A DNA stretch of 63,966 nt, filler included, from an uncultured bacterium (GTDB lineage Bacteria; CAYJRR01), in assembly GCA_964372275.1 (NCBI GenBank). It is 4 parts of 4 records of this genome, joined end to end, with 100 filler letters (N's around TTAATTAATTAA, not from the genome) between each part and the next. Parts side by side here need not be neighbours in the genome. Positions count along the whole stretch, not along the records: positions 20,645 to 41,115 come from CAYJRR010000083.1; 3 more parts are not named here. One strand, given 5' to 3'. The notes below the pieces were generated by a model. It was not told where the DNA came from. It searched no databases and saw only the letters and a program-made list of their open reading frames with translations. The translations under genes and the position numbers were made by a program. This document shows, piece after piece, positions 20,545 through 61,362 of this stretch (position 1 is its first letter; each line of letters begins with the position of its first letter).

Positions 20545-20644
20545 NNNNNNNNNNNNNNNNNNNNNNNNNNNNNNNNNNNNNNNNNNNNTTAATTAATTAA
20601 NNNNNNNNNNNNNNNNNNNNNNNNNNNNNNNNNNNNNNNNNNNN
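20545..20644. other. Artificial contig-joining spacer
   Basis: N44-TTAATTAATTAA-N44, stops in all frames. Confidence 0.97.
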
Positions 20645-20714: not shown

Positions 20715-22301
20715 CTACTGGAGGTCTCCGTCGAAGTCGTACTTGGCCAGAAATCCGTCCCGGTCCCCCAGGCTTTCGTTCCCGTCGATCCCTCCGTGCG
20801 TCCACCCGCCGACGTACACCGCCCGCTCCGCCGCCACGACCGAGGTCCCCCAATCCATTTCGGTCGTCCCCAACAGCCGAACCCACTCCAGTTCCAACTG
20901 GGGATTCCATTTCGCGAGGAACAGGTCGTACTGCCCCCTCGCTTGCTCGCCGTTCCAATCACCGCTTGTACTTCCGACGACGTAGACCGACGCGTCTGAA
21001 TCGGTCCCGACATCGTACGGTTCGTCGCCTTGATCGCTTCCGATCTGATCGCTCCACGAAACGTTGCCCGCTCCATCGAACGCAATCAAGACGACGTCGA
21101 ACGAGCCGAGAGCATTATTTCCCATGAGTGCTGTTTCGGTTCGTCCTACGACGAAAACGTGACCGTTCTCATCGACGGAAACCGCTTCTCCAACGTCTGT
21201 GCCAATGTCTCCGACCTGTCGAACCCATTGCAAGACTCCGCTCGCTGAATACTTCGCGAGAAACAAGTCCTCGGATCCGTTGGCGGTTCCTTGCAGCAGC
21301 CCCTTGGTTTTTCCGGTCACATATGCCGCGCCGAATTCGTCGACGGTGATTCCCAGACCAACGTCCTCATCGCCAGTGCCCAGCTGGCGAATCCACTGCT
21401 GATTCCCTTCGGGAGAGTACTTTGCCACGAAGGCGTCGAGCCCTCCTTGGTTTGCGCCATCGAGGCTACCCGAGGTCGATCCGGCGACGTACACCGCACC
21501 CAGGCTGTCCACGGCGACGGTATTCGCGATGTCGGTTCCGCCGGACGTGATGCTTCGATTCCAGAGCTTCGTCCCGGTGGAATCGTATTTCAACAGGACG
21601 GCGCCGGCGGTCGCGAGGTCGATTGCGCCTCCGGCCCCCGCCGCGACGGTGTTTCCGGACGCGTCGACCGCTAGATCGAAGATCGAATCCTGCTGCGAGG
21701 TGCCGAGTTGGCGCGTCCAGATCGTGTCGCCGGAGCGGTCGAGGGCTTTCAGGAAGAGATCGTCGAATCCCTGCGGGCTGTAGGGCGCAAATCCGCCGCG
21801 CGTGACACCGGCGATGACGATCTGGTCCTCCCAGACGGCAATCCCCTGGACTTCGTCGAATTGGTCCGTCCCGACTTGCCGCGTCCCGATCCATCCGGGT
21901 GGGCGAGCGGTGACCTGGGTCGATGGTGGCCCTTCGCCGTTCTCATTCACGGCGACCACGACGAAACCGTAGGTGACGTCGTTCTCCAGATCCTCCTTGG
22001 TGAAGGTACAGCATAGGACTGCGGCGTCGGCGTCGGCCCGCTCCAACGTCGGGGTCCACGCCGACCAGGGTGCCTCCGCCGAATAGATCGAGTAGTGCGT
22101 GACGTCGTCCTCTTCGAGGGGCGCGTCCCAGCGAAGGGTAACCGTTCCGATTCCGGCGCTTGCGGTGACCGCGGTCGGAGCGGCGGGGTAGTTCAGTCGG
22201 ATCTTGGTGTAGGAGTCGCAACCATCAAGGACCAGGCCGAGTGGAATCGTCACGAGGAGAACGAATCGAGGCCGCTCGTTTCGAACCGCTTCGCAGCTCA
22301 C
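20715..22301 (-). CDS. FN3 + SBBP-repeat beta-propeller lipoprotein
   Basis: GTG start overlaps the upstream TGA. Lipobox-like LDGC. FN3 (LRWDAP...YGFVVVAVNENGEGPPS). Repeated W.RQ.GT...D....AVD..G.VYV.G.T units. Confidence 0.85.
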   Translation of the reverse strand: MSCEAVRNERPRFVLLVTIPLGLVLDGCDSYTKIRLNYPAAPTAVTASAGIGTVTLRWDAPLEEDDVTHYSIYSAEAPWSAWTPTLERADADAAVLCCTFTKEDLENDVTYGFVVVAVNENGEGPPSTQVTARPPGWIGTRQVGTDQFDEVQGIAVWEDQIVIAGVTRGGFAPYSPQGFDDLFLKALDRSGDTIWTRQLGTSQQDSIFDLAVDASGNTVAAGAGGAIDLATAGAVLLKYDSTGTKLWNRSITSGGTDIANTVAVDSLGAVYVAGSTSGSLDGANQGGLDAFVAKYSPEGNQQWIRQLGTGDEDVGLGITVDEFGAAYVTGKTKGLLQGTANGSEDLFLAKYSASGVLQWVRQVGDIGTDVGEAVSVDENGHVFVVGRTETALMGNNALGSFDVVLIAFDGAGNVSWSDQIGSDQGDEPYDVGTDSDASVYVVGSTSGDWNGEQARGQYDLFLAKWNPQLELEWVRLLGTTEMDWGTSVVAAERAVYVGGWTHGGIDGNESLGDRDGFLAKYDFDGDLQ

Positions 22302-23461
22302 CGTCCGGCGACCTGGAAACGCGGCTTGGGGGCGAGGGAGAGGAGGAAGAGCTTCAGCGGTCCCTGCTCCTGGGCCGAGAGCGCGAGGTACTTGTCGCGC
22401 GCGGACGCCGCTTCGCCGCCGTGGGCCTTGATCGCCAGGTCGAGGGAGGCGAGCGCGCGGCCGTCGTGCAGCCACGGGGGGGAGACGGCGACCCCCCAGA
22501 GCGGCGGCGTGAGCCAGAGCCGGTTCTCCCCCTGCGCCAGCTCGTACCCTAGGTCGTGACGCTTCAGGTCGGTGAAGGCGGCGATGCGCGTGCCGTCGGC
22601 GAGGGTCATCGACGGGACGTGGCAGGTGGCGCAGCCGAGGTCGGAGAAGAGCCGCTCCCCGCGCGGGAACTTCTCGTAGAGATCGGCCAGTCGGACGGAG
22701 TCGGGGGGCTCGAGGGAGGGGACGGGGAGGGCGGCGAGGAAGGCGGCCAGCGCGGACCGTTCCCCTGCATCGAGCTCGATCCCCAGGGCGTGCGTCCCCA
22801 TGTGGCCGATCGCCTCGTCGAGCGTGGCCCAGCGACCGGTCCGTCCGAACGGGCGAACGACCAGGTCGGCCGCGACCCCGTCGGGCGAACCGCGCGTCCC
22901 GAAGGAGACGCCGTGCGTCCGCAACGGCAGGCCGCGCGAAGCCTGCGCCTGGATCTCGGCCGTCATCTCGGCGGCGAGCCGCTCCAGCAAGGCGCTCCCG
23001 GCGAGGGCCGGCGGATTGCGGCCGTCGAGCTGACCGTCGACGAGCCCTCCGCCTCCGCCAGGTCCGCCTCGCCAGTGGCAGGACATGCAGCGCGTCGTGC
23101 GGGTGAGCGGCCGGCGTTCCCCGGGCACCGGGACGTCGAGCAGGAACAGGTCGTAGCCGATCTCGGCGAGCGCGGCACGGCCGGCCTCCCCGGCCGCAAG
23201 CGCCTCTTGCAGAGCCTTGCGGCGGTCCGCCGCCGCGCGCGCCGGATCGGCGGCCGCCGCGAGGCGACGCTGGTGCCACTGCTCCGACTCGGCGAGCGCC
23301 CGATAGGCGTCTGCCATCGGCAACTCCGCCAGGCGCCCGTCGTCGATCGCCGGCCGGTCGCTCGCGGGCGGCCGGCGGAATCCCAGCGCGTGAAGCCCGG
23401 CGGCGGTGGAGGCGATCGCCACCGCCGCGACGGCGAGCAGCCGGATCCCCGTCGCTCTCAT
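22298..23461 (-). CDS. Di-haem oxidoreductase (DHOR) family protein 2
   Basis: CMSCH and CATCH; FTDLKRHDLG; TPPLWG...PWLHDGRA...HGGEA; N-terminal signal/anchor. Confidence 0.85.
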   Translation of the reverse strand: MRATGIRLLAVAAVAIASTAAGLHALGFRRPPASDRPAIDDGRLAELPMADAYRALAESEQWHQRRLAAAADPARAAADRRKALQEALAAGEAGRAALAEIGYDLFLLDVPVPGERRPLTRTTRCMSCHWRGGPGGGGGLVDGQLDGRNPPALAGSALLERLAAEMTAEIQAQASRGLPLRTHGVSFGTRGSPDGVAADLVVRPFGRTGRWATLDEAIGHMGTHALGIELDAGERSALAAFLAALPVPSLEPPDSVRLADLYEKFPRGERLFSDLGCATCHVPSMTLADGTRIAAFTDLKRHDLGYELAQGENRLWLTPPLWGVAVSPPWLHDGRALASLDLAIKAHGGEAASARDKYLALSAQEQGPLKLFLLSLAPKPRFQVAGR

Positions 23462-24957
23462 CGGTAGTCGATCCGCGGGAGGCGGGTGAGCGAGGTGAGG
23501 AAGACGCGCAGTTCCGCCTTCGCCCCCGGCGGAAGGCGCTCGAACGCGTCCCGTTCGTCCTGCGCCTCCCCTCCGTGGAGGAGGATGGCGTCGTCGAGCG
23601 TGGCGGCGCGTCCGTCGTGCAACCACGGGCCGGTGTCGGCCAGACCCCAGAGCGGCCGGGTCAGGAACTGGTCGGCCGGAACGCCGCTGGGGTGGTCGCG
23701 ACGGTCGGCGAGCCCCGGACCCATCGCGTGTCGCTTCAGGTCGCTGAACAGGAAGATCGGGACCGCGTCCCGGTCGAAGGCGTCGGTGCGCGGACGCGGC
23801 GCTTCGCCGTCGACGAACAGGTCGACCTGCAACCCCTTCCCGATCTCGAGGATCGCCTTCCCCAGGGTCAGCGCCGGCACGTGGCAGGAGGCGCAGCCGA
23901 TCGATTCGAACCGCGCAGCCCCTCGACCGTGCGCCGACCGTAGCTCCGGATCGATCGGCGGGATCATCACCGGGATCTCGAGGAGGGAGAGGTAGGTCAC
24001 CATCGCGGTGACCATCCCGTCGAGGAGCTCGTTGGGCGACCCGTCCTGGTCCCGGTCCCACGGCGTGCCGCGGCCGGGGAGCTTCGCCTCGGCAAGTTGC
24101 ACCCCGTGGTGCCGCTGGAAGCCGTCGGCAACGAAGTCGCGCAAGGTGGCGACGTTCCCCTTCCACCCGAACGGCTTCACCACCAGGTCGGCATCGACCC
24201 CCACCACCTCGCTCGTGTCGAGGCTTCCGTCGGGGAGACCGGTGACCCGCCCGAAGGAGATCCCCTTGGAACGGAGCTCGAAGGTGGAGGGCTTCCCGTT
24301 TTGCCGCGCTGTCAGAAGGGCGTAGTCACGGGGCTGGCGAAGGTCGGCCGTCATCTCCTCGGCCAGCCGCTGGACGATCCCCATGCCGAGGGTGTGCGGC
24401 GCGTTGCGCTCGAAACCGCTGTAGGGATCGGTCCCGTCGCCGTCGAAGAAGGCGTTCTGGCTCATCTCCCCGGCGCCGTCGAAACCTCCGCGGCGGTGGC
24501 ACTCGGCGCAGGAGAGCGCGTCGGGTCCTCCGGTCTTGCCGCGGTGGACGCGGGACAGCCCCGGGCCGAAGCCGTCGGCGTCGGTCATGTCGTGCTCGAA
24601 CAGCTCGTCGCCGAGGAGGAAGATCCACTCCCGTTTCCAGAGACCGCGGTCGATGGCGCTCTGGTCGACGCGCAGGTCGGAGGAGAGCTCGCCGGGGTCG
24701 ACGGCGTCGACGAACCGCTCCCAACGGCCGCGGTCGTAGCGCTCGAGCGCTTCGGTCGCGCGGTCCGCGAGCAGCGCGCGGTCGGCGGAGAACGGGGCCG
24801 TCGGGGGGGCGCGTCGGTACGGCGGGAGGTCGCCGACCGAAGGGTAGGCCGTGGTGGCATTGAGGTCGGCAGGGGCCTGTTCGTCTACCCGGGCGCAGGC
24901 CCCCGCCGGCACCCCCATGAGCACCGCAACGACCCAGTGGCGTATCCGCCTCGTCAT
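23458..24957 (-). CDS. Di-haem oxidoreductase (DHOR) family lipoprotein 1
   Basis: Lipobox AGAC; CAECH and CASCH; KPFGWKG; FSDLKRHAMG; TRPLWG...PWLHDGRA...HGGEA. Confidence 0.88.
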   Translation of the reverse strand: MTRRIRHWVVAVLMGVPAGACARVDEQAPADLNATTAYPSVGDLPPYRRAPPTAPFSADRALLADRATEALERYDRGRWERFVDAVDPGELSSDLRVDQSAIDRGLWKREWIFLLGDELFEHDMTDADGFGPGLSRVHRGKTGGPDALSCAECHRRGGFDGAGEMSQNAFFDGDGTDPYSGFERNAPHTLGMGIVQRLAEEMTADLRQPRDYALLTARQNGKPSTFELRSKGISFGRVTGLPDGSLDTSEVVGVDADLVVKPFGWKGNVATLRDFVADGFQRHHGVQLAEAKLPGRGTPWDRDQDGSPNELLDGMVTAMVTYLSLLEIPVMIPPIDPELRSAHGRGAARFESIGCASCHVPALTLGKAILEIGKGLQVDLFVDGEAPRPRTDAFDRDAVPIFLFSDLKRHAMGPGLADRRDHPSGVPADQFLTRPLWGLADTGPWLHDGRAATLDDAILLHGGEAQDERDAFERLPPGAKAELRVFLTSLTRLPRIDYR

Positions 24958-25041: not shown

Positions 25042-25767
25042 CTAGCTCTTGCAGCAGGCGATCGGCAGCGTCGTCGCGCAGGAGATGTTCGCTTCGACCT
25101 TCAGCGACAGCGAGTTCGGAACGTCCATCGTCGAACCGTTCTTCGGGTCGTTCTGGACCACGGTCACCTTCGAGCCCCGGTAGAGCGTGTCGGAGCCGGT
25201 GGTCCACATGGCGCAGGTGCCCTTGAAGTTGTTCTCTCCGGTGTCGGTTCCCGAGCCTTGGACCGACGACTGGTCGGTGAAGACGGCGAACTGCTGGTTG
25301 TCGGTCGCGAGCACCCCCTTCAGCAACGCCCTCTTCATCTCCTCCAGCGAGCAGACATGCGAACCCGCCGTCGGACCCGGCGTCGGTCCGGTCAGCGTCG
25401 TCGTCTGGCAGAGCTCGTTCGCCGCCTTGAGGCCGATGCTTCCGGTCGTTCCGTTCTTGATCGCCATCCCGACGCTGGTTCCGTCGTTCTCGGTGTAGTA
25501 GCCGAGGTAGTCGCCGATGGTGGTGGTCGTCGGCGTAGCGAGCAGCGTCGAGTCGCCGGCAATCGCCTTGCCCGATCCCGTCCCGACGTCGATCGAGATC
25601 GTCGGCGGGGTGGTGTTCGAGTCGCACTTGATCCCCGGACCGGCGGTGAAGGAGCCGCATCCGAGGGCCGCCTGCTTCGTCATCTTGACCGCGTCGTCGC
25701 TCTTGTGCGCGCCGGAACATCCGGTCGCGAGGGCCGCCGCAAGGGCGCCCATCCAGATCCGCTTCAT
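25042..25767 (-). CDS. 8-Cys secreted lipoprotein, paralog C (endostatin/DUF1554-like C-terminal pattern)
   Basis: SD GAGGAGG; lipobox ATGC; AANELC...HVCSLEE...CAMWT...C...IACC. Confidence 0.8.
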   Translation of the reverse strand: MKRIWMGALAAALATGCSGAHKSDDAVKMTKQAALGCGSFTAGPGIKCDSNTTPPTISIDVGTGSGKAIAGDSTLLATPTTTTIGDYLGYYTENDGTSVGMAIKNGTTGSIGLKAANELCQTTTLTGPTPGPTAGSHVCSLEEMKRALLKGVLATDNQQFAVFTDQSSVQGSGTDTGENNFKGTCAMWTTGSDTLYRGSKVTVVQNDPKNGSTMDVPNSLSLKVEANISCATTLPIACCKS

Positions 25768-25828
25768 GAGACCTCCTCGGTCGAGTTCGATTCGTTGAAG
25801 TTGAAAGATCATCGAGTCCCTCTCAGGA

Positions 25829-26548
25829 TCAGCGGCAGCACGCGACGCGCGAGGCGACGCTGCAGTCCTGCAGGGCGGTGAACTTGATGCTGTTCGCCTT
25901 CCCGACCTCCGCGAGGTTGTCCGGATCGGAGTCGACGATCTCCCACTTCGTCCCCTTGCTTCCGGTGGCCAGCGAGTTGGTCCACCCGTCGCAGTTGGCG
26001 TAACGGTTGTAGATGGTGCCGGCCCCTTCGACGTAGGAGTGGTTGGGGAGCGCGGCGCCGTTCTCGCCCAGCGCGATCGTGCCGGCGGCGGCGTTCATGA
26101 TCAGCTCGGCGTTCGAGCAGGCGTGCGCCCCCGCGTACGACCCCGCCGCCGCATGCGGCCCCGGGTAGGGACCGGTCAGCGTCGACGACTTGCACAGCGC
26201 ATCGGCCGCACGCACGCCGGTCAGGCCGCCGCTGGCGACCTTTTGGCCCGTCGCGTTGCTGAAGTAGCCCAGGTAGGTCCCCGGCGACATCAGCCGGATG
26301 TCGGTACCTTCGGCCACCTTGCCCGCTCCGCTGCCGAAGTCGAGCTTCAGCGTCGGCGGAGTCGTCGTGCTATCGCAGATCACCCCCGAGCCGGCGGTGA
26401 TGTCGGCGCAGGAGAACGCTCCGTCGTCGTCGTCGTCGTCGTCCGCTCCGTCGTCGTCGTCGGAGTCGGTTCCGGTGCTACCGCAAGCGACCGCCGCCGT
26501 GACCAGGGCCGCCCAGAACAGCTTCTTCATCAGATCGAAGTTCTTCAT
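25829..26548 (-). CDS. 8-Cys secreted lipoprotein, paralog B
   Basis: Lipobox AVAC, poly-Asp linker; GVRAADALC...HACSNAEL...CDGWT...C...VACC. Confidence 0.8.
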   Translation of the reverse strand: MKNFDLMKKLFWAALVTAAVACGSTGTDSDDDDGADDDDDDDGAFSCADITAGSGVICDSTTTPPTLKLDFGSGAGKVAEGTDIRLMSPGTYLGYFSNATGQKVASGGLTGVRAADALCKSSTLTGPYPGPHAAAGSYAGAHACSNAELIMNAAAGTIALGENGAALPNHSYVEGAGTIYNRYANCDGWTNSLATGSKGTKWEIVDSDPDNLAEVGKANSIKFTALQDCSVASRVACCR

Positions 26549-26557
26549 GGTGGGCTC

Positions 26558-27205
26558 CTAGTCCTTGCAGCAGGGGATGACGCCCGCGCAGTTGCCGGCG
26601 CCGTTGGTGAAGGTGAAGACCGCCTGGTCGGCGCTGCTGCCCGCCGCGCCGTCGACGACGTTGCTCACCAACGTGAAGCGCGTGGCGCCGCGGTGCGTCG
26701 CCAGGTCGCCCGAGTTGTAGGTGTATCCGCCGCAGCTGGCGCGCCAGCTCGACTGGAGGTTGTCGGACCCCTCGACGAACGGCGTCTCCACCAAGACGAA
26801 GGCGTTCGCCGCCGAGGCGAGGTTGTTGCCTTCGCGCACGTTCTTGGCGAGCTCGTCGGGCGAGCACGGATGGCTGTTGGCGTAGGACGCGACGCAGCTT
26901 TCCCGGCCGCCCCGGTAGCCCACGTAGTTATTCAAGACGACGTTGCCGTCGCCTTCGGTGCGATTGCCGACGTAGTCGCCGGTGTCGGCGAACCATTGGT
27001 CGAGGGCGGCGATCCGGGTGTCGAGTCGCGTGTCGTTCCCCTGGACGACCGTCCCGGCGGTCGTGCCGAAGTTCACCGACAACGTGCCCGACGCGCACGT
27101 CAGACCGGTGAAGGTGAACGACGTACAGAAGTCCGCTGCCGCTGCCCCCGTGCTCGCGAGCGCCGAAACGCCCAGCAGCAGGGTACAGAACATGATTCTC
27201 TTCAT
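26558..27205 (-). CDS. 8-Cys secreted protein, paralog A
   Basis: Sec signal ending AAAA; FGTTAGTVVQGNDTRL; ESC...HPCSPDEL...CGGYT...C...IPCC. Confidence 0.8.
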   Translation of the reverse strand: MKRIMFCTLLLGVSALASTGAAAADFCTSFTFTGLTCASGTLSVNFGTTAGTVVQGNDTRLDTRIAALDQWFADTGDYVGNRTEGDGNVVLNNYVGYRGGRESCVASYANSHPCSPDELAKNVREGNNLASAANAFVLVETPFVEGSDNLQSSWRASCGGYTYNSGDLATHRGATRFTLVSNVVDGAAGSSADQAVFTFTNGAGNCAGVIPCCKD

Positions 27206-27264
27206 TGAGAAGTTCCCCCCGAGAATGCCCTGGTTCAAAGCCCTGACCGGCTGAAACAAGAGGA

Positions 27265-27437: not shown

Positions 27438-28106
27438 ATGGGTCTTCGGCCGCCCGGGGGGGAGGCGCCGCCGCCTCGTCTCGACCGCCGCGAGATGATC
27501 AAGAAGGCCGGCGGCTGGGTGATCCTCGCCAGCGCCGTCGGCGGCTCCGCCCTCGTCGGCACGAGCTGCGGCCGCACGGAGCTCGGCGATCCGCTGGCGA
27601 ACGGTCTCGACGGCGTGCCCACCACCCCCGAGACCGAGACGCCGCCTCCGCCGACGGAGACGGCGACGGCGACCGCGACCGCCACCGAAACCGAGACGCC
27701 GCCTCCGACGCCGCCGCCGACCAACGCCTGCACCGGCAACACCGACCTTCCGGGAACGGCGACGACCCTGACGACGGCCGACATTCCCGTTGGTCAGGTG
27801 CGCTACTTCTCCGCGCTCTCCGTCTTCGTCTGTCACGACGCGTCGGGCTTCTATGCGATGTCGTCGCTTTGCACGGCGCATGGCTACAACCTTGGAACGA
27901 CCGGCACCTGGAGCCAAAGCAACTTGGCGGGCGATTTTCTTTGTAGCGGGCATCAAGGGAGCAAGTTCAGCGAGAACGGGGCGGTCCTCACCGGTCCCGC
28001 GACAACTCCGTTGCCGCACAAGGCCCTCGGCGTGAACCAAGACGACAACAAGATCTGGATCGACGTCAACGCCACGGTCCCCGCGAACACCCGGTGCAAT
28101 CCGTAG
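27438..28106 (+). CDS. Tat-lipoprotein with atypical Rieske-fold domain, paralog 1
   Basis: TAGAAT 7 nt before ATG; DRREMIK Tat motif; GTSC lipobox; Thr/Pro linker; FYAMSSLCTAHG...CSGHQGSKF...GPATTPLPH. Confidence 0.82.
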   Translation: MGLRPPGGEAPPPRLDRREMIKKAGGWVILASAVGGSALVGTSCGRTELGDPLANGLDGVPTTPETETPPPPTETATATATATETETPPPTPPPTNACTGNTDLPGTATTLTTADIPVGQVRYFSALSVFVCHDASGFYAMSSLCTAHGYNLGTTGTWSQSNLAGDFLCSGHQGSKFSENGAVLTGPATTPLPHKALGVNQDDNKIWIDVNATVPANTRCNP

Positions 28107-28107
28107 C

Positions 28108-28788
28108 ATGCGCAGCGTCGATGCGAACGCGCCGGCGGCCCCGATCGGCCGTCGCGAGATGATCAAGAGGGCCGGTGGCTGGGTCATCCTGGCCAGCGCC
28201 GTCGGCGGATCGGCGCTCGTCGGGAGCAGCTGCGGTCGAACCGAGCTCGGCGATCCGCTCGAGGGGATCGGCGAAGTCCCCACCACGCCTGGAACCGAGA
28301 CGCCGCCTCCGACCACCGGAACGGCAACGGCGACCGCGACCGCCACCGAAACCGAGACGCCGCCTCCGACGCCGCCGCCAACCAACGCATGCACCGGGAT
28401 GGCGAATCTGCCGGGTACGGCGACGACACTGACGACCGCCGATATTCCGGTCGGACAGGTACGCTATTTCTCCGCCCTGGGCGTCTTCATCTGTCGCGAC
28501 GCGTCGGGCTTCTATGCGATGTCGTCGCTGTGCACCGCGCACGGCTTCAATCTCGGTTCGACCGGAACCTGGAGCCAATCCAACGTGAGTGGTGGCTTCA
28601 CCTGCAGCGCGCATCAGAACAGCGTATTCAACGGTAACGGAGTCGCGACGGGCGGTCCGGCGCTCACGTTGCAGCCCGGCGGCGGCGGCAATCTTCCACA
28701 CAAGGCCCTGGGAGTGAATGCCGACGACAACAAGATCTGGGTCGACACCAACCAGACGGTCGCCGCCAACACCCGATGCAATCCGTAG
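28108..28788 (+). CDS. Tat-lipoprotein with atypical Rieske-fold domain, paralog 2
   Basis: GRREMIK; GSSC; CTAHG...CSAHQNSVF...GPA...LPH. High DNA identity to paralog 1. Confidence 0.82.
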   Translation: MRSVDANAPAAPIGRREMIKRAGGWVILASAVGGSALVGSSCGRTELGDPLEGIGEVPTTPGTETPPPTTGTATATATATETETPPPTPPPTNACTGMANLPGTATTLTTADIPVGQVRYFSALGVFICRDASGFYAMSSLCTAHGFNLGSTGTWSQSNVSGGFTCSAHQNSVFNGNGVATGGPALTLQPGGGGNLPHKALGVNADDNKIWVDTNQTVAANTRCNP

Positions 28789-28819
28789 GCGCGAATTCGG
28801 GTAAGATGGAAGGCTCCAG

Positions 28820-29419
28820 GTGCGAAACGGGAAGCCAACGCCGGAGTGTGCAGAAGCGACGTCGCGTCGGGAGGCGGTCTTCCGGCTCGGCGGGTGGATG
28901 ATCGTCTCCGGCGTCGCCGGCGCATCGTTCGCCCTCGGGAGTTGTGGACCGCGCGTCTTCGACACCGAGGAGGAGGGGGCGACGGGCGACGACGACGACA
29001 ACTTCGTCGACCCGTCGCCGACGGCGGCGCCCGAGAACGCTTGCACCGGTGTTCCGGATTTGCCGGGCGCCGTCACGCCGCTGACGACGGCCGACATCCC
29101 CGTCGGGCAGGTGCGGTACGTGGCGTCGATGAGCATGTTCATTTGCCACGACTCGTCGGGGTTCTACGCCATGACGTCGCTTTGCACCGCGCACGGCAAC
29201 AACATGGGCACGCAGACCGGCTGGAATCCGAGCAATTTGAGCCTGGGCTTCACCTGCACCCACCAGAACAGCAGGTTCGGACCGAACGGGAACGTCACCC
29301 AGAGCCCGGCGACGATCGCGCTCGCCCACAAGGCCCTCGGCGTCAGCGCCGACGACGGACGCATCTGGGTCGACGTCAACTCCACCGTCCCGGCCAACAC
29401 CCGCTGCAACCCGACCTGA
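28820..29419 (+). CDS. Tat-lipoprotein with atypical Rieske-fold domain, paralog 3
   Basis: SRREAVF; LGSC; acidic linker; CTAHG...CTHQNSRF...SPATIALAH. Confidence 0.8.
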   Translation: MRNGKPTPECAEATSRREAVFRLGGWMIVSGVAGASFALGSCGPRVFDTEEEGATGDDDDNFVDPSPTAAPENACTGVPDLPGAVTPLTTADIPVGQVRYVASMSMFICHDSSGFYAMTSLCTAHGNNMGTQTGWNPSNLSLGFTCTHQNSRFGPNGNVTQSPATIALAHKALGVSADDGRIWVDVNSTVPANTRCNPT

Positions 29420-35013: not shown

Positions 35014-35177
35014 CGGGCCGGCGAGCGCCGGCACCGGCGGATCGGCCCGCCGTGAGCGGTCGTTCACCGTGCACGAACGACGGTGGCGGGACATGCGCGC
35101 CCCGGTTCCGCGCACCGTCCTGCGTCGCCGGAAACGCAAAAGGTCCCGGTTTTCCTCGATCCACTGGGGACGCGGGG

Positions 35178-35193
35178 AGGCACACCCGTTGCT
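35178..35193 (+). promoter_or_regulatory. Putative sigma-54 promoter
   Basis: AGGCACACCCGTTGCT closely matches TGGCAC-N5-TTGCW (GG-N10-GC). Confidence 0.55.
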
Positions 35194-35206
35194 CTACGGC
35201 GGCCGC

Positions 35207-36214
35207 ATGCGCGCACCGGGAGCGTTCGAAACGAAGGGATGGCGGCGGTCGTGGCGCCCGGAAGCCTCGGTCCTGGCGGCGGCCGTGGCCGTGGTCTGGG
35301 CCACCGCGCTTTCGACGGCCACCCCGACCTGGGCGGCCTCCGGCGACGACTGCGATCCGGCGGACGGCACGGCCGTGGCGGCGATCGGCCGGCCGGTCGA
35401 CGAGGCGCGGCGGCACGTCCCGTTCGACTTCGGCGAGCTCCAGTCGATCCTCCGGGACGTCTACGGACCGGAGGCGGTGCTCACCGACCGGCCGCGCGCC
35501 GGACGGCCGGGGCAGGTCGACGCGGACGATTCGTTCACGTACGTGCGAAACGGGCGGACGGTCCGTGGACGGTTGGGATCGGCGCGCCTCGAACGGGCGC
35601 GGATCGCGGCGAACGTCGTCGCCGCGGCGCGTCTGCTGAACGACTCCGGGGCGAGCTTCTCCGCCACCGGGGCGACCGACCGGGCGAACCGGGCCTTCTG
35701 GTGGGTCGGCTACGGCGGGAAGTTCGGGACGCGGATGGGGGTGAAGGCCTCGGACGCGGTCAACGACGTCTTCCAGAACGGGCATCTCTACGGATTCGAG
35801 TGCGCGACGGCGATCCTGCTGATCCACTACAAGGCGATCCTGGACCGCATCGGCGCGGAGGACTTCGACCGGCAGTGTCCGAAACTGCGCATCTTCCGCT
35901 TCGACCTCCTCCCCGAGCCGCTGCGCCGTGTCCGGCGCGAGGGGCCGCAGCGCGAACTGTGGCCGGGTGACCGCGCCTACTTCCAGAACCCGGACTTCGC
36001 GCCCGAGAACAGCGCCTGGCAGGGGGAGAACGCGGTCTTCCTCGGCGCCGGCGAGTACTTCGGCCACGGCCTCGGGATCCACTCCCGGGAGGGGATCGTC
36101 GAACTCCTGAACGGCGTCCGAAAAGAGGGCGCGACCCGAGAGGCGTTCGTCGATCCGAGCGTCCTCCGGCTCGACGGCGTCGGCGTTTCCCGGATGGACG
36201 TGAGCCCGCGGTAG
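35207..36214 (+). CDS. Tgl-like protein-glutamine gamma-glutamyltransferase (transglutaminase) with signal peptide
   Basis: YGFECATAILLIHYKA, PGDRAYFQNPDF, WQGENAV and YFGHGLG match Bacillus Tgl motifs. Hydrophobic N-terminus ending TWA. Confidence 0.85.
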   Translation: MRAPGAFETKGWRRSWRPEASVLAAAVAVVWATALSTATPTWAASGDDCDPADGTAVAAIGRPVDEARRHVPFDFGELQSILRDVYGPEAVLTDRPRAGRPGQVDADDSFTYVRNGRTVRGRLGSARLERARIAANVVAAARLLNDSGASFSATGATDRANRAFWWVGYGGKFGTRMGVKASDAVNDVFQNGHLYGFECATAILLIHYKAILDRIGAEDFDRQCPKLRIFRFDLLPEPLRRVRREGPQRELWPGDRAYFQNPDFAPENSAWQGENAVFLGAGEYFGHGLGIHSREGIVELLNGVRKEGATREAFVDPSVLRLDGVGVSRMDVSPR

Positions 36215-39040: not shown

Positions 39041-40213
39041 ATGCCCCGTCCAGCCCCGGTCTACCTCGATCACAACGCCACCACTCCGGTGCATCCCGAG
39101 GTGCGCGGGGCGATGGCGCGCGCGTTGGAAGAGGGGTTCGGCAATCCGTCGTCGCACCATTGGGCGGGCCGCCTGGCGCGGGGGATGGTCGATCGTGCGC
39201 GCGAGGAGATCGCGCGCGCCATCGGAGGCTCGGTCGCGGAGATCGTCTTCACCTCCGGGGCGTCCGAGGCCGACAACCTCGCGATCCGCGGGACGTGCCG
39301 CGAGGCGATCGGGCCGCGCGACACGATCGTGCTCACCGCCGTCGAGCACCCGGCCGTCCGCGCCGCCGCGCTCTCCTGCGCCGATCGCGGGTGGCGCGTG
39401 GTGACGGTCGGCGTCGATGCCGAGGGTCGGCTCGACCTCGACGCGCTCGACCGCGCCCTCGACGGCCGGGCCTTCCTGGTCGCGGCGATGGCGGTAAACA
39501 ACGAGACCGGCGTCGTCCTCCCGGTGGCGGAGATCGGGCGCCTCGCGCGCGCCCGCGGCGTCCTCTTCTTCTGCGACGCGGTGCAGGCGCCCGGAAAGAT
39601 CCCGGTCGACGTCGGAGGGTGGGGGGCCGACCTCGTCGCCTTCACCGCGCACAAGCTCGGCGGCCCCAAGGGGATCGGCTGTCTCTGGGCGCGGCGGGGG
39701 CTCGAGCTCGCGCCGCTGATCGTCGGCGGTTCGCAGGAACGGGAGCGACGCGCCGGCACAGAGAACGTCCCCGGGATCGTCGGCTTCGGCGCGGCGATGC
39801 GGATCGCCTGCGCCTCGCAGGCCGAGAACGCGGGCCGCGTGCGACGGCATCGGGACCGTCTGGAGGCGGAGCTGACCCGACGGATTCCGGGCGCGGTGGT
39901 CCACGGTGCCCGCGCCGAGCGGGTGACGAACACCGCCTACCTCAGTTTTCCCGGCGCGCTCGGCGAAAATCTCCTGATCGCGCTCGACCTGGAGGGGATC
40001 GCCGTCTCCGGCGGCTCGGCCTGCGCCTCGGGGGCGATGCACCCGTCGCACACGCTGGAGGCGATGGGCGTGCCCGCGGCGATGGCGATGGGTGCGGTAC
40101 GGTTCAGCCTGGGACCCGCCACGACGGAGGCCGAGATCGATCGCGTGCTCGAGGTCGTTCCGCGTCTGGTCGAGGAGCAACGCGCCCATCTCGGCCAGGG
40201 GCCGCGGGCGTGA
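39041..40213 (+). CDS. Cysteine desulfurase, IscS/NifS family
   Basis: YLDHNATTP, GNPSS, NNETG, DAVQ, AHKLGGPKG, SGGSACAS. Confidence 0.93.
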   Translation: MPRPAPVYLDHNATTPVHPEVRGAMARALEEGFGNPSSHHWAGRLARGMVDRAREEIARAIGGSVAEIVFTSGASEADNLAIRGTCREAIGPRDTIVLTAVEHPAVRAAALSCADRGWRVVTVGVDAEGRLDLDALDRALDGRAFLVAAMAVNNETGVVLPVAEIGRLARARGVLFFCDAVQAPGKIPVDVGGWGADLVAFTAHKLGGPKGIGCLWARRGLELAPLIVGGSQERERRAGTENVPGIVGFGAAMRIACASQAENAGRVRRHRDRLEAELTRRIPGAVVHGARAERVTNTAYLSFPGALGENLLIALDLEGIAVSGGSACASGAMHPSHTLEAMGVPAAMAMGAVRFSLGPATTEAEIDRVLEVVPRLVEEQRAHLGQGPRA

Positions 40214-41115: not shown

Positions 41116-41215
41116 NNNNNNNNNNNNNNNNNNNNNNNNNNNNNNNNNNNNNNNNNNNNTTAATTAATTAANNNNNNNNNNNNNNNNNNNNNNNNNNNNN
41201 NNNNNNNNNNNNNNN
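41116..41215. other. Artificial contig-joining spacer
   Basis: N44-TTAATTAATTAA-N44. Confidence 0.97.
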
Positions 41216-41820: not shown

Positions 41821-43686
41821 ATGCCCCCGACTTCCGGAGACTCGCAAATGGTTCGAGGCCCGTGCGACGACCGACCCGTGCGACGCACCGCGCGCCGGTC
41901 GCCGGCCCCCGGCGGAGCCTTCGCCCTTTCCGCCGCGCTCCTCGCCCTCGTGGGCTGCGCGCCGCGCGCCCATCTCGGTCCTCCGCCGGCGGCCTCGGCC
42001 GCCGCCCCCGCGTCGGGAAGCGATGACGCTCCGTCCGCGTCGGCGGCGGAGTTGCCGGGGGAACCGTCGCTGGTCGAGCTCTACCCTTCTCTCGGCGAGG
42101 AGGAGGACGCTCCGCCGTCTCCGGAGCTCGAGCTCGAGATTCAGGAGGAGGAGGCGTTCCTGTCCGAGGCGGTGCCGGCTTCGGTGCGGCTCGATCTCGC
42201 CGCCCTGCGGGCGAAGTACGACATCCCGATCGAAGTGACGCCGACCGTCGAGCAGTTCCTGGTCTACTTCCAGACACGCGGGCGCAAGTGGTACGAGAAG
42301 TGGATGGCGCGATCGACGCGCTACCTGCCGATGATGCGTCAGGTCTTCCGCGAGAACGGGTTGCCGGAGGACCTCGTCTACCTGGCGATGATCGAGAGCG
42401 GCTTCTCGATGAAGGCATGGTCCCGCGCCAAGGCCTCCGGCCCCTGGCAGTTCATGAAGGCCACCGGGAGCCGATACGGACTCCACGACGACTGGTGGAT
42501 CGACGAGCGCCGCGATCCGGAACAGGCGACCCGTGCCGCCGCCGCACACCTGAAGGACCTCTACGACGAGTTCGGCGATTGGTACCTCGCGGCCGCCGCG
42601 TACAATGCCGGCGCCGGCAAGATCAACAAGGCGATCGCCAAGTACGGGACGCGCAACTACTGGGAGCTGTGCAAGGCGGGTCGATACCTGAAACCCGAGA
42701 CCAAGCACTACGTTCCGAAGCTGATCGCGGCGGCGATCCTCGCCAAACATCCCGAGCAGTTCGGCTTCAACGGCATCGACTACCTCGAGCCGCTGGAGTA
42801 CGAGGAGGTCACCGTACCCGATGCGACCGATCTGCGCGTCGTCTCGGAGTGCGCCGGGGCCGACTACGATTCGGTCCTGGAGCTCAATCCATCGCTCAAG
42901 CGATTCTGCACGCCGCCGGGGCGCGCAAGCTTCGCGGTGCGCGTCCCGAAGGGGACGTCGGCCGCCTTCGCCGACGCGTACGCGCGTCTCCCGCCGGAGA
43001 AACGCCTCACCTTCCGCCGCCACGTCGTTCGTTCGGGCGAGACACTGAGCGCCATCGCTCGCCGCTACGGCACCAGTTCCGACGCGGTGCTCCGGATGAA
43101 CGGGATGGTGAACGCGCGGCGGCTCCGCGCCGGCCGGGAGCTGGTGATTCCGATCCCCGAGGGTCACATCGCCCTTCTCGCGGCCGCGGCGCCCGAGCCG
43201 GAACCGGAGTCCAAACGGCCTGCGCCCCCCGCGAGGCGCGTGACGGCCGCCGGCCGCGTCGCGTCCGACGCGGCCTCGCTCCCGGGGGCGGCGTCGATCG
43301 CCGGGCGGGAGCTGGTGCGGCTCACGCTCGCGCCCGGCGACACCTTGTGGGCGATCTCGAATCGCTACGGCGTGACGGTGGACGACGTGAAGCGATGGAA
43401 CGGCATCCGAAACCATCGTTCGGTGCAGGCGGGGGCGACGCTGAACGTGTACGTTCCTCGCAAGGAGCCGGTCCCGGCCGCGGGGCCGAAGCCGATCGCC
43501 GCGGGCGACGGGACGGGCGTGCTCTCCTATCGGGTGAAGAAGGGGGACACGGTCTGGGACATCGCCCGCGAGCACAACGTCGATCCTCTCGCCCTGCTCA
43601 AGTCGAACAATCTCTCGCGCCGTTCGAAGATCCGTCCGGGCGACGTGCTCGTGATCCGTGTCGCCGACTCGACCCCCGCGCACTGA
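41821..43686 (+). CDS. MltD-like lytic transglycosylase lipoprotein with three LysM domains
   Basis: Lipobox LVGC; LAMIESG; GPWQFM; AAAYNAG; ETKHYVPK; three LysM repeats. Start uncertain. Confidence 0.92.
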   Translation: MPPTSGDSQMVRGPCDDRPVRRTARRSPAPGGAFALSAALLALVGCAPRAHLGPPPAASAAAPASGSDDAPSASAAELPGEPSLVELYPSLGEEEDAPPSPELELEIQEEEAFLSEAVPASVRLDLAALRAKYDIPIEVTPTVEQFLVYFQTRGRKWYEKWMARSTRYLPMMRQVFRENGLPEDLVYLAMIESGFSMKAWSRAKASGPWQFMKATGSRYGLHDDWWIDERRDPEQATRAAAAHLKDLYDEFGDWYLAAAAYNAGAGKINKAIAKYGTRNYWELCKAGRYLKPETKHYVPKLIAAAILAKHPEQFGFNGIDYLEPLEYEEVTVPDATDLRVVSECAGADYDSVLELNPSLKRFCTPPGRASFAVRVPKGTSAAFADAYARLPPEKRLTFRRHVVRSGETLSAIARRYGTSSDAVLRMNGMVNARRLRAGRELVIPIPEGHIALLAAAAPEPEPESKRPAPPARRVTAAGRVASDAASLPGAASIAGRELVRLTLAPGDTLWAISNRYGVTVDDVKRWNGIRNHRSVQAGATLNVYVPRKEPVPAAGPKPIAAGDGTGVLSYRVKKGDTVWDIAREHNVDPLALLKSNNLSRRSKIRPGDVLVIRVADSTPAH

Positions 43687-43703
43687 TCGTTTACAGTCCA
43701 AGC

Positions 43704-44519
43704 ATGCGCACGCGCGTGGGGCGACTGCGGGGACCGTTGCTTCACGCGATGGCGTGGCTCCTGTTCGCGCTTCCGGCCGCGGCCCTCGGCCAGACACCGA
43801 CACCGACACCGACGCCCACGCCGGTCCCCGGTGCCGGCGGAGTCCCCGACGGCGAGATGCCGACGATCGCCGAGGACGCCGGCGACGACGGCGACGGCGA
43901 TACGGGCTCGCTGGGAACGGACGGCGACGAGGACGACGAAGAGGCCGAGTCCGTCGGCGACGAGGAGTCGGAAGAGGAATGGGACAACCGCTCCAGCGCC
44001 TCGGGGATGATCCTCGGGATGCGAGGCGGCGTGCACGCCTACGAAGTGGGCGGGCTGGTCGACGACGGCGGCGTCGGACTGGAGTTCGTCGGCGCGATGC
44101 CGATCCACGGACCGTTCTACGCCGGCGGGGCCGCCGGCTATCACACCGGATACGTCGAAGCGGGGGCGGACGGCGAGAGTCGCTTCTTCGACGCGCAATA
44201 CTTCTCTCTCGAAGGACAGTATCGGCGGAACATCGGTCGCCTCAACATGACGGGCGGCGTCGGGATCGGCTACCTCACCGCCAATTCGGCGATGGTCGAG
44301 GCGCCGGAGGGCTCCGAGGAGGCGAACGATTCGATCGAGGTGAGCGGGTCGACGGTCGCCGTCCACGTCGTCACCGCGGCTCACTATCCGATCGCCGGAA
44401 GCTTCGGACTCGTCGCCCAGGTGAAGTACGCACTTGCGCCGGTCAACTTCACCAAGATCGAGGAGACGATCTCGATGGGCGGCCTGACGGTCGGCGTGGG
44501 GATGGATTTCGGCTTCTGA
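43704..44519 (+). CDS. Small outer-membrane beta-barrel protein with acidic N-terminal linker, copy 1
   Basis: Signal peptide, Pro/Thr and Asp/Glu linker, alternating beta-strands, terminal GMDFGF. Confidence 0.75.
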   Translation: MRTRVGRLRGPLLHAMAWLLFALPAAALGQTPTPTPTPTPVPGAGGVPDGEMPTIAEDAGDDGDGDTGSLGTDGDEDDEEAESVGDEESEEEWDNRSSASGMILGMRGGVHAYEVGGLVDDGGVGLEFVGAMPIHGPFYAGGAAGYHTGYVEAGADGESRFFDAQYFSLEGQYRRNIGRLNMTGGVGIGYLTANSAMVEAPEGSEEANDSIEVSGSTVAVHVVTAAHYPIAGSFGLVAQVKYALAPVNFTKIEETISMGGLTVGVGMDFGF

Positions 44520-44544
44520 CCCCGGATCGTTTACAGTGATCGAC

Positions 44545-45351
44545 ATGCGCCATCGCTTGGGAAATCTCCGAGGACTCCTGATCCTCGCCGTGCTCTCGCT
44601 CGCGTCGTGGCTTCCGTTTTCGGCGTTCGGCCAGACTCCGGCGGCCTCGCCGACCGCGACGCCATCGCCGGCCGCGACGCCGCCGGAAGCGTCGACGGAC
44701 GGGGACCTGCCCACTGTCTCCACCGACGCGCCCGACGACGACGAGGACGAGGAGGGGGACGACGCCGACGACGAGTCCGAGGAGGCGGACGAGGGCGACG
44801 ACGAGGAGGAGTGGGACAACCGCTCGAGCGCCTCGGGGATGATCCTCGGAATGCGCGCCGGGCTGCACGCGTACGAGCTCGGCGGCCTGTTCGGCGATGG
44901 CGGCGTCGGCGTGGAGTTCGCCGGAGCGATGCCGGTCCACGGTCCGTTCTATGCCGGTGGCGCCGTGGAGTACCACACCGGCTACGTCGAAGCGGGGGGC
45001 GACCGGGAGAGCCGCTTCTTCGAGGCGCAGCACTTCTCGCTCGAAGGTCAGTATCGCCGAACCGTCGGAACGTTCGGCTTGATGGGAGGCGTCGGGGTCG
45101 GTTATCTCACCGCCAACTCGGCCCTGGTGGTGACGCCCGAAGGGACGGAGCTCCCGGGAGATTCGACCGAGGTGACCGGTTCGACCGTCGCCATCCATCT
45201 CGTCGGGGCCGCGCACTACCCGATCACCGAGAGCTTCGGCGTGGTCGGCCAGCTCAAGTACGCCCTTGCGCCGGTCAACTTCACCAAGATCGAGGAGACG
45301 ATCTCGATGGGCGGCCTGACGATCGGCGTCGGGATGGACTTCGGCTTCTGA
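44545..45351 (+). CDS. Small outer-membrane beta-barrel protein, copy 2 (tandem paralog)
   Basis: Barrel region nearly identical to copy 1. Same upstream GATCGTTTACAGT. Confidence 0.78.
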   Translation: MRHRLGNLRGLLILAVLSLASWLPFSAFGQTPAASPTATPSPAATPPEASTDGDLPTVSTDAPDDDEDEEGDDADDESEEADEGDDEEEWDNRSSASGMILGMRAGLHAYELGGLFGDGGVGVEFAGAMPVHGPFYAGGAVEYHTGYVEAGGDRESRFFEAQHFSLEGQYRRTVGTFGLMGGVGVGYLTANSALVVTPEGTELPGDSTEVTGSTVAIHLVGAAHYPITESFGVVGQLKYALAPVNFTKIEETISMGGLTIGVGMDFGF

Positions 45352-61262: not shown

Positions 61263-61362
61263 NNNNNNNNNNNNNNNNNNNNNNNNNNNNNNNNNNNNNN
61301 NNNNNNTTAATTAATTAANNNNNNNNNNNNNNNNNNNNNNNNNNNNNNNNNNNNNNNNNNNN
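61263..61362. other. Artificial contig-joining spacer
   Basis: N44-TTAATTAATTAA-N44. Confidence 0.97.

Follow-up and report, generated by a model that had tools for sequence, protein, structure and literature searches.

Three tandem, predicted Tat-exported Rieske-fold paralogs with shifted ligand histidines in an uncultured bacterium

We analysed a window of 63,966 nucleotides (the whole stretch of DNA examined, filler included), joined from four records of an uncultured bacterium (GTDB lineage CAYJRR01; assembly GCA_964372275.1), and describe here three tandem genes at 27438-29419 that encode Rieske-fold paralogs, predicted to be exported, whose two metal-ligand motifs, box 1 and box 2, carry their histidines out of the canonical register. 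The trio lies on a 20,471-base contig (CAYJRR010000083.1) flanked by N runs at 20601-20644 and 41116-41159, so that genes outside 20645-41115 are not necessarily its neighbours. The genes, their signals for twin-arginine translocation (Tat), predicted by eye, and their ligand boxes are as follows.

27438-28106, + strand: paralog 1, 222 amino acids; twin-Arg signal, conserved Cys44, Thr/Pro linker and Rieske-fold domain with CxxH...CxxH(+1)
27438-27569, + strand: paralog 1, predicted lipoprotein-type Tat signal (RR at residues 17-18, Cys44)
27870-27881, + strand: paralog 1, box 1, Cys145-x-x-His148
27942-27953, + strand: paralog 1, box 2, Cys169-x-x-His172, then Q-G-S
28108-28788, + strand: paralog 2, 226 amino acids; layout as in paralog 1, with CxxH...CxxH(+1)
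28108-28233, + strand: paralog 2, predicted lipoprotein-type Tat signal (RR at residues 15-16, Cys42)
28531-28542, + strand: paralog 2, box 1, Cys142-x-x-His145
28603-28614, + strand: paralog 2, box 2, Cys166-x-x-His169, then Q-N-S
28820-29419, + strand: paralog 3, 199 amino acids, GTG start; layout as in paralog 1 but with an acidic linker, and CxxH...CxH
28820-28945, + strand: paralog 3, predicted lipoprotein-type Tat signal (RR at residues 16-17, Cys42)
29183-29194, + strand: paralog 3, box 1, Cys122-x-x-His125
29255-29263, + strand: paralog 3, box 2, Cys146-x-His148, then Q-N-S

Box 1 reads CTAHG in all three paralogs, while box 2 is CSGHQGS in paralog 1, CSAHQNS in paralog 2 and CTHQNS in paralog 3, and every copy has 20 residues between its box-1 His and its box-2 Cys, reproducing what an earlier note on this DNA had read from it. 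One Cys and one His are present in each of the two cluster loops of all three proteins. Box 1 is not the product of an insertion, as C-T-A-H-G aligns with C-T-H-x-G without a gap and with the His one place further on. Box 2 of paralog 3 (C-T-H-Q-N-S) aligns just as gaplessly with C-x-x-H-G-S, its His one place back; the resulting CxxH...CxH exchanges the canonical spacings without an indel, the two His having moved in opposite directions. Box 2 of paralogs 1 and 2 is one residue longer than that of paralog 3, and these two alone have the three-residue ligand spacing in both loops. Within the trio, the state of paralog 3 may have come first and been followed by an insertion, or an insertion may have been followed by a deletion. 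Measured against the scaffold, the box-2 His stands five residues from the downstream aromatic in all three paralogs versus four in 141 of 142 relatives, and the shifted register is therefore common to the trio: the swapped spacings claimed earlier for paralog 3 stand, but the box-2 displacement is not confined to that copy. Circular permutation or a wholesale box swap was ruled out, the scaffold order being normal.

For comparison, we assembled 305 non-window proteins with 307 domains, which are similarity-ranked samples and not all Rieske proteins: the best 150 of 510 matches in a hidden Markov model (HMM) search of 1.84 billion representatives, the best 120 of 230 matches to a profile of the three paralogs (6,991 candidates), and all 51 matches to a subfamily profile among 8,000 scored candidates. 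The Rieske motif is given as Cys-X-His-X15-47-Cys-X2-His (PMC11138216); 298 of the 307 domains match it and none of the three paralogs does. Gln is the commonest residue past the box-1 His (157 of 307 domains), and the paralogs have Gln past the box-2 His. Judged by these patterns, each box has taken on the form typical of the other.

The three paralogs are under purifying selection. Over the domains, the Nei-Gojobori method gave synonymous divergences (dS) of 0.79, 1.01 and 1.10 and ratios of nonsynonymous to synonymous divergence (dN/dS) of 0.23, 0.29 and 0.27. About half of the synonymous sites differ among the copies, and three ligand columns out of four, those of the box-1 His and of Cys and His in box 2, keep the residue while using different codons. 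Because the same residues are kept in different codons at dS of 0.79-1.10, a sequencing slip is excluded, which confirms the earlier argument from conservation in diverged copies. Different codons alone do not demonstrate selection specifically on the ligands, as the three copies agree at 75 of 138 columns.

The proposed Rieske fold found support in both sequence and models. In a single-sequence phmmer comparison, the domain of paralog 1 matched the Kuenenia Rieske protein 9rk4 (Kuste4569) at E 2e-9, and two AlphaFold2 models (pLDDT, the predicted local distance difference test score, 93.8 and 93.2) aligned best to the same structure (Z 17.0, root-mean-square deviation 2.5 and Z 16.3, deviation 2.4, over 110 residues each), with 1fqt (BphF) reaching Z 13.6. 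The nearest ESM Atlas clusters were Rieske at 0.85-0.87, which we take as a lead only. Pfam PF00355 scored paralogs 1 and 2 at 17.2 and 17.8 versus a gathering threshold of 20.3 and did not match paralog 3, and the NCBIfam PetC/QcrA cut-offs were missed as well, the best PetC score being 25.4 against a cut-off of 250. The paired four-Cys CxxC knuckles of rubredoxins and zinc ribbons do not describe these proteins, the second ligand being His in both loops. The bis-His non-Rieske [2Fe-2S] proteins Apd1/Aim32 are described with a C-X8-C-X24-75-H-X-G-G-H motif in a thioredoxin-like fold (PMC11138216); the motif is absent from the three paralogs, and the models match Rieske folds.

No paralog has a Cys at either position of the disulfide pair of bc1/b6f Rieske proteins. 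Such loss, which the earlier note had correctly reported, is not distinctive: both Cys are absent in 26 of 142 relatives, and in the closest subfamily, comprising 28 metagenome proteins, 16 keep the pair and 12 do not. Rieske-type proteins are normally without it (PMC11138216). Three other cysteines (in NAC, F(V/I)C and TRCNP) are invariant in the trio, as had been pointed out, but they are not special to the variant. In the subfamily alignment the terminal Cys occurs in 31 of 31 rows and the N-terminal and FxC Cys are at least 90% conserved, and all three occur in P0006, the best canonical, disulfide-bearing match. They were accordingly ruled out as compensation for the motif change, given that P0006 has them with canonical boxes. 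The numbers of Cys at the two ends vary together: most subfamily members have two N-terminal and two C-terminal Cys, the trio and P0006 a single one at either end. This suggests disulfides that link the N- and C-terminal parts within the basal domain.

The box-1 change is real and very rare, bearing out the ligand rearrangement described in the earlier note: box 1 is CxH in all 307 comparison domains. Box 2 is CxxH in 298, has a longer Cys-His spacing in six, is CxH in two and lacks its Cys in one (P0250, the only domain missing a ligand Cys); the box-1 His is missing in none. His occurs at box-1 position 4 in one of the 307 canonical domains and at a Cys-free box-2 position 3 in none of 55. 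Three to seven residues lie between the box-2 Cys and His of P0008, P0034, P0035, P0048, P0080 and P0107, and box 2 is the plastic loop of this group. P0108, a disulfide-less relative, has His at both box-1 positions 3 and 4 and is a possible slip intermediate. No other carrier of box-1 CxxH was among the matches listed in the profile and HMM searches, and a word-index search with paralog 3 (19 candidates) returned only the window's own three proteins. A GTDB genome scan reduced 124 pattern matches to two loci, neither a carrier of the change: one (L001, 9704-10294) is a distant relative, a canonical, disulfide-less Tat Rieske gene in a Kofleriaceae metagenome-assembled genome, with genes for a large multihaem cytochrome and a DsbD-like protein close by (names by eye), and the other (L002) a chance match inside a MurD-like gene (named by eye). 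Plasmids gave no pattern match. Word matching found no description of a natural Rieske protein with box-1 CxxH in the open-access literature, which is weak evidence of absence.

The closest subfamily (the P0006-P0022 group and P0269-P0284), to which the subfamily search contributed 16 further close members, is 29-42% identical to paralog 3. Of its 28 proteins, all have CxH in box 1, with CxxH in box 2 of 25, CxxxH in one and CxH in two. The last two, P0272 and P0283, combine a canonical box 1 with a shifted box 2 and no disulfide, and their CxH...CxH completes the set, so that all four spacing combinations occur in the subfamily once the trio is included. In both, a further His stands a few residues past box 1. 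In a tree of 31 rows and 149 columns, built with the motif columns left out and having a weak backbone, the trio is monophyletic (100/99), with paralogs 1 and 2 as each other's closest relatives (97/88), and P0272 pairs with canonical P0270 (97/92). The three copies described earlier as diverged are indeed so, yet they represent a single evolutionary event. Mapped on the tree, the box-2 shift requires three changes and the disulfide six. Approximately unbiased (AU) tests rejected a single clade of the five shifted proteins (p-AU 0.0002) and of the trio with P0272 (p-AU 0.0008), the groups being motif-defined but tested after the tree had been seen. On this tree the box-2 shift appears to have three origins, always after disulfide loss. 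P0272 is 74% identical to P0270, yet has H-Q-N-S in place of W-H-G-S without a gap; these are the residues of paralog 3, a protein with which P0272 shares just 31% identity. The shared H-Q-N-S looks like convergence, not drift, which argues for a preferred alternative loop structure and a retained metal site.

On these grounds the paralogs would retain a Cys2His2 site, for which a remodelled [2Fe-2S] cluster is the likeliest reading, with a probability that we put at roughly one half. The disulfide between the boxes would have been lost first, freeing loop positions and letting a ligand His slip by one residue, whereby box 1 would become C-x-x-H-G and box 2 C-x-H-Q-N. Two similar rubredoxin-type knuckles would then exchange roles, and the resulting 2Cys+2His site should continue to accommodate [2Fe-2S], with its tilt reversed. 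The two Rieske loops are related by an approximate two-fold axis. They resemble rubredoxin and zinc-ribbon loops (PMC2946596), and ECOD groups Rieske domains with rubredoxin-like folds and zinc ribbons (PMC11836899). Paralog 3 would fit such an inverted site exactly, and its pairing of a short with a long spacing makes this its best reading; in paralogs 1 and 2 this site would be lengthened by a single residue between Cys and His of box 2. The latter two can be taken either way: with the Cys as anchor, their spacing is that of rubredoxin; with the downstream scaffold as anchor, their His stands where that of paralog 3 does, with a bulge in addition. Extra residues at this place, as a remodelled cluster would need in paralogs 1 and 2, are tolerated in six relatives, and two Cys and two His are kept across both loops in all five variants (the trio, P0272 and P0283). 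A Ser/Tyr pair behind box 2 tunes the potential, and Kustd1480 has Ser/Phe (PMC12954380). The Ser is kept in all five variants and the three paralogs have Phe for the Tyr. Given this Phe and the missing disulfide, a redox potential below that of respiratory Rieske proteins is to be expected.

Several observations weigh against a remodelled, inverted cluster. The AlphaFold2 models are cofactor-free, and their fold match is partly circular, as 142 of the 145 rows in their input alignments were other Rieske relatives (141 of the 148 non-window matches listed in the HMM search plus P0154, with seven long or tandem sequences excluded). The box-1 change has a single origin and is known from one contig only. 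Box 2 shifted alone in P0272 and P0283, which speaks against a strictly compensated mirror swap, and the shifts are therefore not obligately compensatory. Ser is found at the tuning position in about three quarters of the 142 relatives, which weakens the argument from its retention. Mutagenesis of the archaeal Rieske ferredoxin ARF led to the conclusion that cluster assembly depends on the kind of ligand and its spacing, the spacing in these loops settling whether [2Fe-2S] or one metal ion is bound: the box-1 substitution H44C blocked assembly, and H44I/K45C/H64C gave a mononuclear, rubredoxin-like Fe(Cys)4 site (PMC2946596). Box 1 was thus the intolerant loop of ARF, and a one-place ligand shift, there with Cys ligands, led to a mononuclear site.

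The strongest alternative, doubtful yet a real contender, is that paralogs 1 and 2, perhaps all three, hold a single metal, with Zn, Fe or some other ion in tetrahedral Cys2His2 coordination within the Rieske scaffold, and that paralog 3 could keep a [2Fe-2S] cluster; a role as metal-binding or redox lipoproteins would be just as tentative. CxxH...CxxH is the spacing of rubredoxins and zinc ribbons, the two folds beside which Rieske domains are classed (PMC11836899), and the ARF triple mutant made the same box-1 ligand move from Cys+2 to Cys+3 with a mononuclear result, although with four Cys (PMC2946596). Box 1, C-T-A-H-G, also matches the pattern of rubredoxin-derived peptides (GCTVCG/GCTVHG); with Co(II), Cys/His peptides of this kind gave a 2Cys+2His spectrum, and their binding of Zn was tighter than that of Fe, but the spectra of His-substituted rubredoxins were much weaker, and it could not be confirmed that His ligates mononuclear Fe (PMC9400863). 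In addition, the CxxH-Q-G/N of box 2 in paralogs 1 and 2 exceeds a knuckle by one residue and shares H-Q-x-S with paralog 3, and the CxH...CxH relatives suggest one tolerant type of site, not a switch to rubredoxin geometry. A combined version, in which one operon would form a nuclearity series with an inverted [2Fe-2S] site in paralog 3 and single-metal Cys2His2 sites in paralogs 1 and 2 created by one added residue, strikes us as rather unlikely. The earlier note had offered a new cluster geometry or a mononuclear Cys2His2 site, and both stay plausible, the second with the ARF variant as its engineered precedent.

That the proteins bind no cofactor, the former ligand Cys pair serving as a disulfide outside the membrane or being merely structural and the proteins acting as surface scaffolds, seems quite improbable. 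It draws on the failed defining motif, on the Pfam scores of 17.2 and 17.8 versus 20.3 with none for paralog 3, and on the 75 of 138 invariant columns, which make conservation of four residues weak evidence. Tat export, moreover, does not require a cofactor. Yet a His adjoins the vacated position wherever the canonical His is missing, in all five variants and over three box-2 origins, though His is rare there; a ligand Cys is missing in one of 307 domains (P0250) and the box-1 His in none; and H-Q-N-S is convergent. Very improbable, to our mind, is an altered ligand set, with one shifted His off the metal or exchangeable and its place filled by solvent, substrate or a partner, as in a labile sensing or transfer site. 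The four spacing combinations suggest a loose site, and labile clusters with His ligands serve sensing and transfer in other systems (PMC11138216), but the loops have no spare Cys and the three extra Cys are common to canonical relatives. The chance of a sequencing or assembly artefact is negligible: the trio comes from one contig of a gapped assembly with N runs, with one member per cluster, but its copies use different codons for the same residues at dS of 0.79-1.10 and 27438-29419 holds open frames and no N.

To return to the remodelled cluster, the architecture of the three proteins indicates where it would act. Each consists of a twin-Arg N-terminus, a hydrophobic stretch leading to Cys-Gly, a low-complexity linker (Thr/Pro- or Asp-rich) and a domain of about 130 residues, which in paralogs 2 and 3 is 78% and 66% identical to that of paralog 1. 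Paralog 2 starts one base beyond the stop of paralog 1 and has a seven-residue insertion past the GPA loop. The Tat signals called intact in the earlier note are recognisable by eye in all three as twin-Arg motifs. Overlooked at that time was the conserved Cys-Gly, a likely lipid anchor in all three copies, whose Cys column is at least 90% conserved across the subfamily alignment. The residues upstream of this Cys fit the lipobox consensus, judged by eye, only loosely, and the signal models in the domain-library scans gave no match for the three paralogs. Tat substrates of class II are lipoproteins (PMC13673990), and by eye the signals likely fit this class. The paralogs are most likely lipid-anchored, Tat-exported carriers whose domain, kept outside the cytoplasmic membrane by a long flexible tether, would shuttle single electrons between redox partners. 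They are unlikely to serve in bc1/b6f, since no cytochrome b family was found among the 19 open reading frames (ORFs) scanned on the contig; no Rieske oxygenase family was found among them either. No promoter on the + strand and no terminator was found. Third-position GC is 0.82 in the domain of paralog 1 (27714-28103), 0.78 in that of paralog 2 (28378-28785), 0.92 in that of paralog 3 and 0.94-0.95 in the two downstream genes.

The genes transcribed divergently from the trio, and a further gene that follows them, are these.

25042-25812, 25829-26548 and 26558-27208, - strand: three tandem exported Cys-rich paralogs, head to head with the Rieske trio
22298-24957, - strand: a pair of neighbouring genes for di-haem oxidoreductases of the DHOR family (PF06537, E 8e-21 and 3e-13), downstream of the Cys-rich paralogs
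20715-22241: FN3 and SBBP beta-propeller protein, following the DHOR genes

The Cys-rich paralogs are 31-38% identical to the middle one, end in CC and gave no Pfam or NCBIfam domain match; their Atlas lead, DUF1554 at 0.78, is under the reliable range. They are possible partners of the trio, and the DHOR proteins possible redox partners. The same contig carries, both on the + strand, a Bacillus Tgl-like transglutaminase gene (35069-36214, PF20085, E 3e-58) and a NifS-like cysteine desulfurase gene (39041-40213). On another contig, two tandem near-duplicates (43658-45351, + strand) have acidic N-terminal stretches and, by eye, a likely outer-membrane barrel C-terminus. A large repeat-rich protein fragment between N runs (61307-63952, - strand) looks different in composition from the rest of the window and is possibly a contig binned from another source.

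Set beside known systems, the paralogs share fold and homology with PF00355 and 9rk4 but differ in their box-1 CxxH, their box-2 CxH or CxxH+1, the missing disulfide, the sub-cut-off Pfam score and the predicted lipid anchor and tether, with no cytochrome b among the scanned ORFs. With their unnamed subfamily they share the RR...GGW signal, the Cys-Gly anchor, the Thr/Pro linker and the N-terminal, FxC and terminal RC cysteines, but not its CxH in box 1 (28 of 28). The low-potential Rieske-type ferredoxins (BphF 1fqt and ARF) resemble them in fold and in lacking the disulfide pair, yet retain CxH...CxxH, and are cytoplasmic partners of oxygenases. The ARF H44I/K45C/H64C variant has the same move of the box-1 ligand from Cys+2 to Cys+3 within a Rieske scaffold, but is a laboratory mutant with four Cys, whereas the paralogs are natural and their outer ligands are His. 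Rubredoxin and zinc-ribbon knuckles share the CxxL...CxxL spacing of paralogs 1 and 2 and the C-x-x-L-G pattern of box 1; unlike them, the paralogs have a full Rieske fold, a His as second ligand in each loop and an extra residue past the box-2 His. By fold and ligand content the paralogs thus appear to be Rieske-type, but they fail the defining motif and would not count as canonical members.

CxH...CxxH is treated as the defining Rieske signature. Together with P0272, P0283 and the canonical P0270 and P0006, the three paralogs make up a small natural panel of four spacings on one scaffold, through which the spacing rule and the kinship of Rieske, rubredoxin and zinc-ribbon sites become directly testable. 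All five shifted proteins fall below the Pfam cut-off, an annotation blind spot in which more of them may be hidden. If the nuclearity series were true, the subfamily would sample all spacings from Rieske to rubredoxin and zinc ribbon, a step that our searches otherwise turned up only as engineering.

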